The translations under genes and the position numbers were made by a program. A DNA stretch of 64,000 nt from Candidatus Micrarchaeota archaeon (GTDB lineage: Archaea; Micrarchaeota; Micrarchaeia; Micrarchaeales; CABMGC01): contig JAJZKU010000001.1 in assembly GCA_021850705.1 (NCBI GenBank), forward strand, positions 157 to 64,156, in the 5' to 3' direction. Shown here in pieces: positions 29,144 to 37,987 of the stretch (position 1 is the first letter of the stretch; every line of letters starts with the position of its first letter). The notes beneath the pieces were generated by a model. The model ran no database searches, was not told where the DNA came from, and was given only the letters and a program-made list of their open reading frames with translations.

Positions 29144-30337
29144 CTATCCAAGAAGTTCGTCCATGGCCTTTGCAATTACCTTTTCCTTTTTATCTCCCGA
29201 GCTCAGCAGTTCAAAGAGCTCTGCAGGCCCTATGCCGAGATCATAGCCATTCTTCTTCAGCTCAGCCATCAGTATACCTATTCCAAGATCCTTTACAGAC
29301 ACGTTACTTATGTCAGAGAATATCTCCGATCGCTTTTCATCATCAGATACCTCGTCAAAGCCCTTCTTGGATATCTCAATAACAGCATCATTCTTGAATT
29401 TCTTGGCTATTTCCTGCATATCTATTCCAAGCCTCTTGACCGTTTTGCTATTCCCGTTTATCTCTATCCTTATTATGCATCCCTGCCCGTTCTTTGAAAC
29501 CGCATTGCCTATCCTTTCCTCCATTTCCCTTAACAAAGTTCCCTCTTTTACAGAATCAGCGTCGATCTTAAGCGATTCAAAGCTTCTGGAATTTATACGC
29601 ACGAATTCATACTCCTTTGTACGTGTATCATAGACAAAGAAGCCCTTTTTCTCTGTCTCTCCGTCCTTCAGCTGTGTAAGCACAGTACTGCCCGGTATCA
29701 AGAACTGCTTACCGTGGACTGTCGATTCAAACCTGCTGTGTATGTGCCCGTTGACATAAAGGTCAAAGCCCTTGGGCAGTTCCTCCATTCGCAGGAAAGA
29801 GTCGTTAAACGGAAGCAGCTCATATAGGGACTGATGGAACATCAGTATGTTGAAAGCGCCATCGATCCTCTTGTCTGCATATTCCTTCAACGCTTCTCCG
29901 AAGCGTTCTTCTACTACGCCTGCAATTCCTGTAACCGCTACCTGTTCGCCATCCTTCTCGATTACTGCAACCCCCATTCCTATGTCTGCAAGCAGCGATG
30001 TGAGATTCAGCAGGTCAACAGGGTCCTCGGTATCACTCGTCCTCCTCTCATGAGTTCCTGGAATTGCGAGTATTGGTTTGTCCGTGTATATCTTTCCAAG
30101 CCCTTCAAATCCTACTATCCTTGCACCGAATTCCTTTTCACGCAGCTCCTTGAATATGCCTATCGCTTCGGCAATCACATCAGGTTTAGGGAACCGCGTA
30201 TCAAATATGTCGCCAGGTATAATTATGGCATCTGCTCTTTCAGCAGCCATCGTCAAGGCTTCCTTTGCCTGGTTATAAGCATCCTTCCTGAAACGCTCAT
30301 ATCCTATGTGCAGATCAGATACGATCGCTATCTTCAT
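29144..30337 (-). CDS. mre11: Mre11/SbcD-family metallophosphoesterase nuclease
   Basis: Phosphoesterase motifs DLHIG, GDIFD, GTHE, MFHQ and GHIH in order; 397 aa. Confidence 0.75.
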   Translation of the reverse strand: MKIAIVSDLHIGYERFRKDAYNQAKEALTMAAERADAIIIPGDIFDTRFPKPDVIAEAIGIFKELREKEFGARIVGFEGLGKIYTDKPILAIPGTHERRTSDTEDPVDLLNLTSLLADIGMGVAVIEKDGEQVAVTGIAGVVEERFGEALKEYADKRIDGAFNILMFHQSLYELLPFNDSFLRMEELPKGFDLYVNGHIHSRFESTVHGKQFLIPGSTVLTQLKDGETEKKGFFVYDTRTKEYEFVRINSRSFESLKIDADSVKEGTLLREMEERIGNAVSKNGQGCIIRIEINGNSKTVKRLGIDMQEIAKKFKNDAVIEISKKGFDEVSDDEKRSEIFSDISNVSVKDLGIGILMAELKKNGYDLGIGPAELFELLSSGDKKEKVIAKAMDELLG

Positions 30338-37110: not shown

Positions 37111-37635
37111 TCATCTTATTCTGCTAATCTTCTTGGATGCAAAAATTCTTATTATATACTCCTGCAGTGTGCTTACGAAAGCCTCCTCATTCTCAGAGAA
37201 TTCCTTAAGGTCCTTTTCATCGAAAAGTTCCTTCTTGTTTACAACCAGGCTCTTCAGATAAGTGTCTGTCATCGAGTAAAATCTCTTGCTGCATCCCCTG
37301 CATATATATGAAGGCACTACCGGCACTGTATTTATGACGGAAGGATGCATGAGGTCAAGTTCCCTTACCAGTATTCCGCTGCAGGAAGTGCAAACAGCAT
37401 CGATATCCATACCTTTATACTCCCCGGAATCAGCTATCTCCATATTCATTGTCAGGCTCACATAAAACGGATCATCCGGCTTCATATAGACCTGCTTCTC
37501 GACAAGTCCTCTCTCATTCAATTCCGTTATCAGCATGCCATTCTGCGTGTTCTCTATAAGGCAGCATAGCCTCTTGCCATCATTGCTATAGAAATCGCTC
37601 CTCAGTCTTGTATCCCTGCTCCTGAAAAACTTCAT
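37111..37635 (-). CDS. Hypothetical Zn-ribbon protein
   Basis: 174 aa with CTSC...CRGC cysteine pairs; shares 1 nt with the upstream histone stop codon. Confidence 0.35.
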   Translation of the reverse strand: MKFFRSRDTRLRSDFYSNDGKRLCCLIENTQNGMLITELNERGLVEKQVYMKPDDPFYVSLTMNMEIADSGEYKGMDIDAVCTSCSGILVRELDLMHPSVINTVPVVPSYICRGCSKRFYSMTDTYLKSLVVNKKELFDEKDLKEFSENEEAFVSTLQEYIIRIFASKKISRIR

Positions 37636-37847
37636 CAGCTTCCCTTCTTTATAATATAATCTTCAATGTCCTCCTTGGTTATCTTTGCCCTCTTCGAACG
37701 TTTTGCATTCTGCACTGCAAAGGCGGATATTTTCTCAGCTTCCTTTTCAAGTATTGCAGCTATCTTATCAGCTCCGCTATCGGTTATCCTTGTCTTGAAA
37801 TGGCTTTTCACAAGCTCCTTTATAGCCTTCCTCGATAGTCTTGCCAT
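37635..37847 (-). CDS. Archaeal histone-fold protein
   Basis: 70 aa that aligns by eye with the HMf-type pattern (AIKELVK...RITDSGADKIAAILE...AVQNAKRSKRAKITKEDIE). Confidence 0.75.
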   Translation of the reverse strand: MARLSRKAIKELVKSHFKTRITDSGADKIAAILEKEAEKISAFAVQNAKRSKRAKITKEDIEDYIIKKGS

Positions 37848-37851
37848 TTAA

Positions 37852-37897
37852 TCAGCACTCAAGATCGTCATCACCATTCAGACCTTCAGCTCATCAT
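37852..37897 (-). ncRNA. Candidate C/D-box sRNA in the histone 5' leader
   Basis: Minus strand reads AUGAUGA-9nt-CUGA-AUG-GUGAUGA-12nt-CUGA, i.e. C, D', C' and D boxes in the correct order; the D box ends 4 nt before the histone ATG. Confidence 0.55.
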
Positions 37898-37918
37898 CCG
37901 TTCTATATGATATGTAAA

Positions 37919-37928
37919 AGTATATAAT
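37919..37928 (-). promoter_or_regulatory. TATA-box candidate driving the sRNA/histone transcript
   Basis: Minus-strand TTATATAC lies ~27 nt upstream of the C box. Confidence 0.4.
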
Positions 37929-37987
37929 TGCAAAAGGTAAAAATCCGAATGTTTATAATTATTCTCCGCTATTTATCATTGCTATTC

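Follow-up and report, generated by a model that had tools for sequence, protein, structure and literature searches.

The locus studied here raises a question with three parts: whether the leader of a small histone-fold gene of a Micrarchaeon, on the minus strand of the window (i.e., the whole stretch of 64,000 nucleotides that was analysed), carries a true C/D-box sRNA; if it does, which RNA it would direct methylation to; and whether its position just before the histone start codon means that both are made as one transcript. The assembly is a 24-contig MAG, 79% complete and without assembled rRNA, in which the window corresponds to contig C5, and the DNA stretch itself is present in 20 listed sequencing runs, all of them DNA metagenomes (acid mine drainage, tailings). 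The genome encodes fibrillarin (PF01269, 257 bits), Nop5 (PF01798, 178 bits), and two L7Ae-family genes (PF01248, 86 and 69 bits).

Four boxes in front of a histone-fold gene

As read from the sequence, the C/D-type element in the histone-gene leader spans 37897-37852 on the minus strand (Table 1). A preliminary description, made from the letters alone, had listed four boxes, their order, and spacers of 12 and 9 nt, and all of these were found on the minus strand as written. The TATA box that it placed upstream is also present roughly where claimed, but 22-23 nt from box C and not about 25, and the string that it gave (TTATATAC) occupies 37927-37920, against 37928-37921 for the octamer of Table 1. 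The terminal box C (RUGAUGA) and box D (CUGA), a K-turn-competent pair, are both present and are kept in 29/29 related loci with the full region, and the internal D' and C' boxes are joined by a short loop (CUGA-AUG-GUGAUGA, 37881-37868). The C'-D spacer has 12 nt and the C-D' spacer 9 nt (8-12 nt in relatives), against an archaeal norm of about 12 nt; inter-box spacing shorter than 12 nt reportedly lowers RNP activity (Tran et al. 2005). Apart from possible G-U pairs, there is no terminal stem in the sRNA, and the RNA fold of the leader together with the ORF start is not of unusual stability (z = -0.98).

Table 1. Features of the histone-gene leader and of the two genes behind it, in window coordinates.
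Feature	Position	Strand	Basis and remarks
TATA-like promoter octamer ATTATATA	37921..37928	-	Sequence; 3' end 22-23 nt before box C
Box C, AUGAUGA	37891..37897	-	Sequence; RUGAUGA in 29/29 related loci
D' spacer GCUGAAGGU, 9 nt	37882..37890	-	Sequence; probably structural, non-guide
Box D', CUGA	37878..37881	-	Sequence and related loci
D'-C' loop AUG, 3 nt, K-loop geometry	37875..37877	-	Sequence; linker of 3 nt in 15/29 related loci
Box C', GUGAUGA	37868..37874	-	Sequence and related loci
D guide CGAUCUUGAGUG, 12 nt	37856..37867	-	Positions 2-11 from box D complementary to tRNA-Leu(CAA) nt 31-40
Box D, CUGA	37852..37855	-	Sequence and related loci
UUAA spacer, 4 nt, from box D to start codon	37848..37851	-	Sequence; no Shine-Dalgarno site, TATA box or T-run
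Histone-fold protein gene, 70 aa, ATG at 37847	37635..37847	-	ORF; read as mRNA body of the same transcript
174-aa ORF, ATG overlapping the histone stop codon (UGAUG, 37633-37637)	37111..37635	-	ORF; no Pfam family; probably same operon

The boxes are short, and RUGAUGA and CUGA are common words, so that four of them could in principle fall into this arrangement by chance in an AT-rich intergenic region. However, the strict C/D'/C'/D pattern was found at 2 sites in the 647-kb assembly, with 0.0 expected per genome, and the relaxed pattern at 3 sites, with 0.07 expected, both expectations being taken from 30 first-order Markov shuffles of the genome. With Rfam in E-value mode over all 64 kb, the element was the sole C/D-like match (sR28 model, 31.3 bits, E 2.6e-4), and when a region of 401 nt was searched alone, about 18 archaeal C/D models all matched 37850-37901. 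Together with the persistence of the element across an order, and of its guide across the archaeal domain, these numbers leave a chance arrangement with a negligible probability, and this reading is excluded.

The sR28 score lies under the gathering score of 39, and at gathering thresholds Rfam returned tRNAs only from the whole window, without any C/D family being reached. A gathering-level Rfam search of the copies of the same guide in Thermococcus, DHVE2, Nitrosopumilus, and Thermoplasmatales also found nothing. Rfam C/D models are guide-specific.

The arrangement had been presented as the only C/D-like one found, which is true for the window, and two further candidates lie on other contigs of the genome. 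One of these is a complete C/D sRNA (G000:C17:30200-30246, plus strand), located 5 nt after tRNA-Gln(UUG) (30123-30195); its two guides pair perfectly with the 23S of the same genus, over 10 and 9 bp, with 19 nt between the two sites, and the RNA has the appearance of a classical double guide that is probably transcribed as a dicistron with the tRNA. The third candidate (G000:C8:5890-5836, minus strand) is C/D-like, but its C' box is a variant one (AUGACGA) and 9 nt link D' to C'; by the criteria used, its guides have no rRNA or tRNA target among the same-genus rRNAs and the genome's own tRNAs, and its D' guide has an 8-nt complementarity to the 16S 3' end (GAUCACCU).

The D guide and the wobble base of tRNA-Leu(CAA)

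The assembly contains no 16S or 23S; rRNA targets were sought in three genomes of the same genus, and the six guides of the three candidate sRNAs were scanned uniformly against those rRNAs and the 31 tRNAs of the genome itself. Both spacers of the histone-leader element had been proposed as guides, and the outcome was different for each of them. The D guide gave a unique perfect match, tRNA-Leu(CAA), with the N+5 nucleotide at C34; for the D' spacer, there was no rRNA or tRNA complement above chance.

In the first case, positions 2-11 of the guide, counted from box D, form 10/10 Watson-Crick pairs with nt 31-40 of tRNA-Leu(CAA) (ACUCAAGAUC), positions 1 and 12 remain unpaired, and position 5 pairs with C34, the wobble base, as given by the N+5 rule. 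This is the single D-guide match among the 31 tRNAs and the same-genus rRNAs, with about 0.007 chance 10-mer matches expected in some 7 kb of rRNA and tRNA, and the target gene, which is not annotated (G000:C17:18631-18535, minus strand), is also the best complement in the genome outside the sRNA gene. As a positive control, the same scan recovered the two perfect 23S sites, 19 nt apart, of the C17 sRNA. Ribosomal RNA was rejected as the target of the D guide, there being no site with two or fewer non-Watson-Crick positions in the 16S or 23S of the three same-genus genomes. For the guide to pair with the tRNA, the two uppermost base pairs of the anticodon stem have to open, in a mesophilic acidophile.

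The T-loop of the target tRNA carries an insert (about 13 nt), for which reason ARAGORN misses the gene; with 11-16 nt removed there, the program calls it as tRNA-Leu(CAA). BLAST matches across the insert region, with at least 85% identity, occur in genomes from each of the order's two main families (L050-L079). Elsewhere in the genome, ARAGORN calls a 95-nt "tRNA-Stop(tta)" at G000:C1:13-107 (minus strand), which looks like a mis-registered intron-containing tRNA and not a suppressor.

The conservation within the order follows the same boundaries as the pairing. Guide positions 2-11 are identical in 28/29 loci, while position 1 may be G, A, or U and any base is seen at position 12. On the side of the tRNA, the segment ACUCAAGAUC does not vary among 30 relatives. 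The C-terminal domains of Nop5 limit the guide-substrate duplex to 10 nt, with 9-10 bp working best at lower temperature and 8 bp being inactive (PMC7229835), and the invariant guide block is exactly this 10-nt maximum. There is no consistent pattern of covariation between guide position 12 and tRNA position 41, and none is expected because position 12 is outside the 10-bp duplex. Altogether, the element is very probably a working guide for Cm34 of tRNA-Leu, as judged from its pairing and conservation. One genome of the order (G013, locus L019) has a U for G at guide position 5, the partner of C34, with its tRNA-Leu(CAA) unchanged, and the guide of this genome may be decaying or retargeted.

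The D' half behaves in another manner. Across the order, its spacer varies both in sequence and in length (8-12 nt, mode 9), and against the same-genus 23S it reaches only a 7/8 match with one mismatch, which is chance level. No complement with one mismatch or fewer that is better than chance was found in the same-genus 16S and 23S, the own tRNAs, and the RNA of the operon, the last having no complement at all within one mismatch. Given the duplex-length limits described above (8 bp being inactive; PMC7229835), so short a spacer is argued to be non-guiding, and these 9 nt are probably the structural half of the RNA. tRNA-directed sRNAs typically carry one working guide and one orphan (PMC7994747; PMC7668247).

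The pairing with the histone-fold gene and its transcription

Lack of conservation of the boxes in related genomes had been named in the preliminary description as grounds for refutation, and the opposite was found, given that boxes and guide are kept in 37/41 genomes of the order. The exact guide occurs once per genome in 35/41 genomes, always within about 35 nt upstream of a histone-fold gene and on the same strand, and when G013, whose copy has one mismatch, and G031, whose C' box is a variant, are counted as well, the sRNA-histone pair is present in 37/41. The full box set stands upstream of the orthologous histone-fold gene in 29/30 loci from 40 relatives, and the thirtieth locus is truncated by the end of its contig, with the guide still present. 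One locus (L144) carries the same sRNA and the same 62-nt upstream sequence as L022, the locus of a same-family genome (G007). Across the order, 1-14 nt separate box D from the start codon, with a mode of 4 nt (16/28).

The identity of the neighbouring gene is better seen from its orthologues than from the 70-aa ORF itself, which scores 18.7 bits against Pfam CBFD_NFYB_HMF, under the cut-off of 21.4. PF00808 is matched by 27/31 orthologues, and a profile of the 31 matches HMfA, HMfB, and HmvA at E ~1e-10.

Beyond the order, the guide is kept but its neighbour is not. In a phylum-wide sample, the guide was found in 23/25 and 38/45 genomes of the two main families of the order and in 25/80 genomes of other families. 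With about 1.5 kb examined on each side, a histone-fold ORF accompanied it at 0/22 loci from other families, against 8/8 same-family loci. Outside the MAGs labelled as Micrarchaeota or Marsarchaeota, no histone-fold ORF was found near the guide in about 50 loci, with up to 8 kb examined per locus. Sister families also retain D' guides of 11-13 nt. From this pattern, the origin of the sRNA-histone fusion is placed within this order, alongside the loss of a conserved D' guide.

Several observations were made on these other D' guides. In sister Micrarchaeota families, the tRNA-Leu guide and a conserved D' guide of 11-13 nt are found in one sRNA; in family f4 (L200-L203), this D' guide is UCGAGGUAUU-like, close to the 23S guide of the C17 sRNA, and in much of family f9 (L204, L206-L208, L210-L211, L217), it is GCAAUACCUC-like. 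In two genomes (G077 and G099), the D-guide block is present in two copies, separated by 45 and 155 nt, and guides appear to be shuffled between sRNAs. The free-standing copies of Nitrosopumilaceae (L082, L090, L123, etc.) have a conserved D' guide CCUAUCCCU and a 6-bp terminal stem, and those of Thermoplasmata (L083, L117, L135, etc.) have a conserved D' guide ACGAACCCUUU that looks complementary to the tRNA T-arm.

This distribution also bears on a different role for the element, namely, that it would work mainly in cis, as an L7Ae-binding K-turn operator of histone translation, and not in trans as a methylation guide. K-turns in archaeal 5' UTRs do bind L7Ae and repress translation (PMC5539422), and box D is here only 4 nt from the start codon. 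Nevertheless, an operator of this kind needs the box sequences only, yet the 10 guide nucleotides complementary to the tRNA are invariant while positions 1 and 12 drift, and the guide stands free, without a histone gene nearby, in many archaeal phyla as well as in sister Micrarchaeota families. We therefore regard a mainly cis-acting operator as very unlikely, although the element may have a regulatory side effect on the histone gene.

With respect to transcription, about 23/29 related loci have a TATA-like octamer whose end lies 19-25 nt ahead of box C, and, from the usual archaeal distance between TATA box and start, transcription would begin here at about 37899-37896, at box C or 1-2 nt before it. 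There is no T5 run before 37629, where the first one comes after the histone stop codon, and the gap between box D and the ATG has no TATA box and, in this genus, no Shine-Dalgarno site. The TATA box thus stands about 22 nt ahead of box C, a second promoter would not fit in, and T-runs are absent; on these grounds, the co-transcription of the sRNA with the histone-fold gene seems fairly probable, and the earlier suggestion that the sRNA would be "cut from, or compete with" the histone mRNA leader is consistent with this anatomy.

It might be argued instead that sRNA and histone gene are separate transcription units, the histone mRNA being leaderless, or nearly so, from a promoter inside the sRNA, and their adjacency the result of tight packing. 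Leaderless mRNAs are common in archaea, and a 4-nt gap would suit them; the genomes are very compact; and one related locus (L128) has a gap of 56 nt that contains a TATATA string. Yet to start transcription at the ATG, a promoter would need to overlie the C' box (~37873), which is not TATA-like here, neither the D'-C' linker nor the spacer is conserved as a promoter element across the 29 loci, and no T-run terminator separates box D from the ORF. Moreover, the linkage is kept in 37/41 genomes even though the surroundings diverge to 36-59% protein identity, which is hard to explain by packing alone. We consider two separate units improbable, and a single transcript remains the preferred reading.

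In the leader, the sole match to the end of the same-genus 16S (...GAUCACCUCA) is the C' box (GGUGAU), which was discarded as a Shine-Dalgarno site for being too distant from the AUG (27 nt). The 3' end of the same-genus 16S (L037-L039) reads ...CUGCGGAUAGAUCACCUCAAU, without the usual terminal CCUCCU, and hence has an atypical anti-Shine-Dalgarno sequence. Downstream, the 174-aa ORF (37635-37111, minus strand) has paired Cys motifs and is followed by a PRC-barrel ORF of 82 aa (37106-36858), and these two ORFs and the histone-fold gene are probably one operon behind the sRNA leader.

Proposed mechanism and known systems

Taking these lines together, we consider it likely that the element is the Micrarchaeota version of a pan-archaeal sR47-type C/D sRNA, which would form the leader of the histone mRNA and guide Cm34 of tRNA-Leu(CAA). 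According to this proposal, the sRNA of this order would have no transcription unit of its own and, transcribed from the TATA promoter, would make up the entire 5' leader of the histone-fold mRNA. L7Ae, Nop5, and fibrillarin would assemble on the C/D and C'/D' motifs; guide positions 2-11 would pair with nt 31-40 of tRNA-Leu(CAA), and fibrillarin would 2'-O-methylate C34 to Cm34, with the D' half serving as structure and not guiding. The mature sRNA, of about 50 nt, would be the portion shielded by the bound proteins, the mRNA part being either cleaved off or left to decay. Expression, co-transcription, processing, and Cm34 in this organism are thus predictions drawn from its DNA.

The fusion might also have a function in itself, beyond the sRNA riding on the histone promoter. 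Every histone-fold mRNA would then start out with a complete site for C/D RNP assembly, 4 nt ahead of its start codon. The L7Ae/Nop5/fibrillarin RNP assembled on the leader could block translation, or it could trigger cleavage after box D and so release a near-leaderless, translatable mRNA together with one guide RNA. We hold this only tentatively and think it rather unlikely; that the pair is retained throughout the order, and that a gap of 4 nt is preferred, would agree with it but does not demonstrate it. If true, the supply of a chromatin protein would be tied stoichiometrically to the tRNA and rRNA modification machinery in an ultrasmall archaeon.

Independently of such a function, the element adds a probable functional RNA gene, so far unannotated, to the genomes of Micrarchaeota, and it predicts Cm34 in the tRNA-Leu(CAA) of barely culturable organisms. 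As a guide RNA that would be permanently joined to an mRNA (in one order, in about 90% of its genomes), it is also an unusually clean example from nature, which could be used for studying the release of archaeal C/D sRNAs from mRNAs and whether a leader RNP controls translation.

The wider distribution was approached by scanning one genome per prokaryotic species for the C'-guide-D block, with at least 120 matches. Among those listed are Micrarchaeota, Nitrosopumilaceae, Thermoplasmata, Thermococcus, Bathyarchaeia, Heimdall-, Njord-, Had-, and Marsarchaeota, and other archaea, and among the 80 loci listed the one bacterial match, on a Streptococcus contig without box C upstream, is taken as chance. 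The sR47-type guide is in this way among the most widely kept archaeal C/D sRNAs, though missed by the Rfam library that was searched, even in Thermococcus.

The closest known system is sR47 of P. abyssi, in which the sequence before box D directs a reconstituted RNP to methylate tRNA-Leu(CAA) at C34 in vitro, with substrate oligonucleotides that contain ACUCAAGAUC (PMC3413156). In Pyrococcus, sRNAs target position 34 of four tRNAs, of which this is one (PMC7994747). Both RNAs have the same layout (C, spacer, D', short loop, C', 12-nt guide, D), the guide core GAUCUUGAGU, the target segment ACUCAAGAUC, and the selected C34 are all identical, and in both of them only the D guide has a target; Thermococcus loci even have an identical C'-guide-D block. 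In contrast, the D' spacer is unrelated here, with 9 nt against 11 nt in the Thermococcus copies, and neither this spacer nor the flanks are related between lineages. The host is a mesophilic acid-mine Micrarchaeon and not a hyperthermophile, and the RNA is the leader of a histone-fold gene instead of being free-standing. What is common to both amounts to about 20 informative bases, with a guide that is fixed by its target, so that the likeness fits descent or convergence alike.

A second comparison is with the archaeal C/D sRNAs that abut ORFs, whose co-transcription with them is an established pattern (Tripp et al. 2017, as cited in PMC7994747; also PMC6009581). The element resembles those described in PMC7994747 and in category 1 of Lui et al. 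2018 (PMC6009581) in that it has the same sense as the ORF, lies fewer than 25 nt ahead of it, and has no independent unit, and the release or rescue from the mRNA that is presumed for them (PMC7994747; PMC6009581) is the same route proposed here. In Pyrobaculum, however, most guides that overlap the 5' end of an ORF are orphans, and their context is fluid, whereas here there is a clear conserved target, and the pair is kept in 37/41 genomes.

Lastly, the K-turn in the 5' UTR of l7ae of Sulfolobus acidocaldarius, through which L7Ae acts on translation by way of its own mRNA leader, similarly places an L7Ae-recognised motif beside a translation start (PMC5539422), but it is a bare K-turn with a Shine-Dalgarno sequence and no guide, whereas the element here is a full two-motif guide RNA. 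In summary, the RNA class, the guide-target pair, and ORF-abutting sRNA genes were already known, and what is new here is the Micrarchaeota member and its stable, order-wide pairing with a histone-fold gene.
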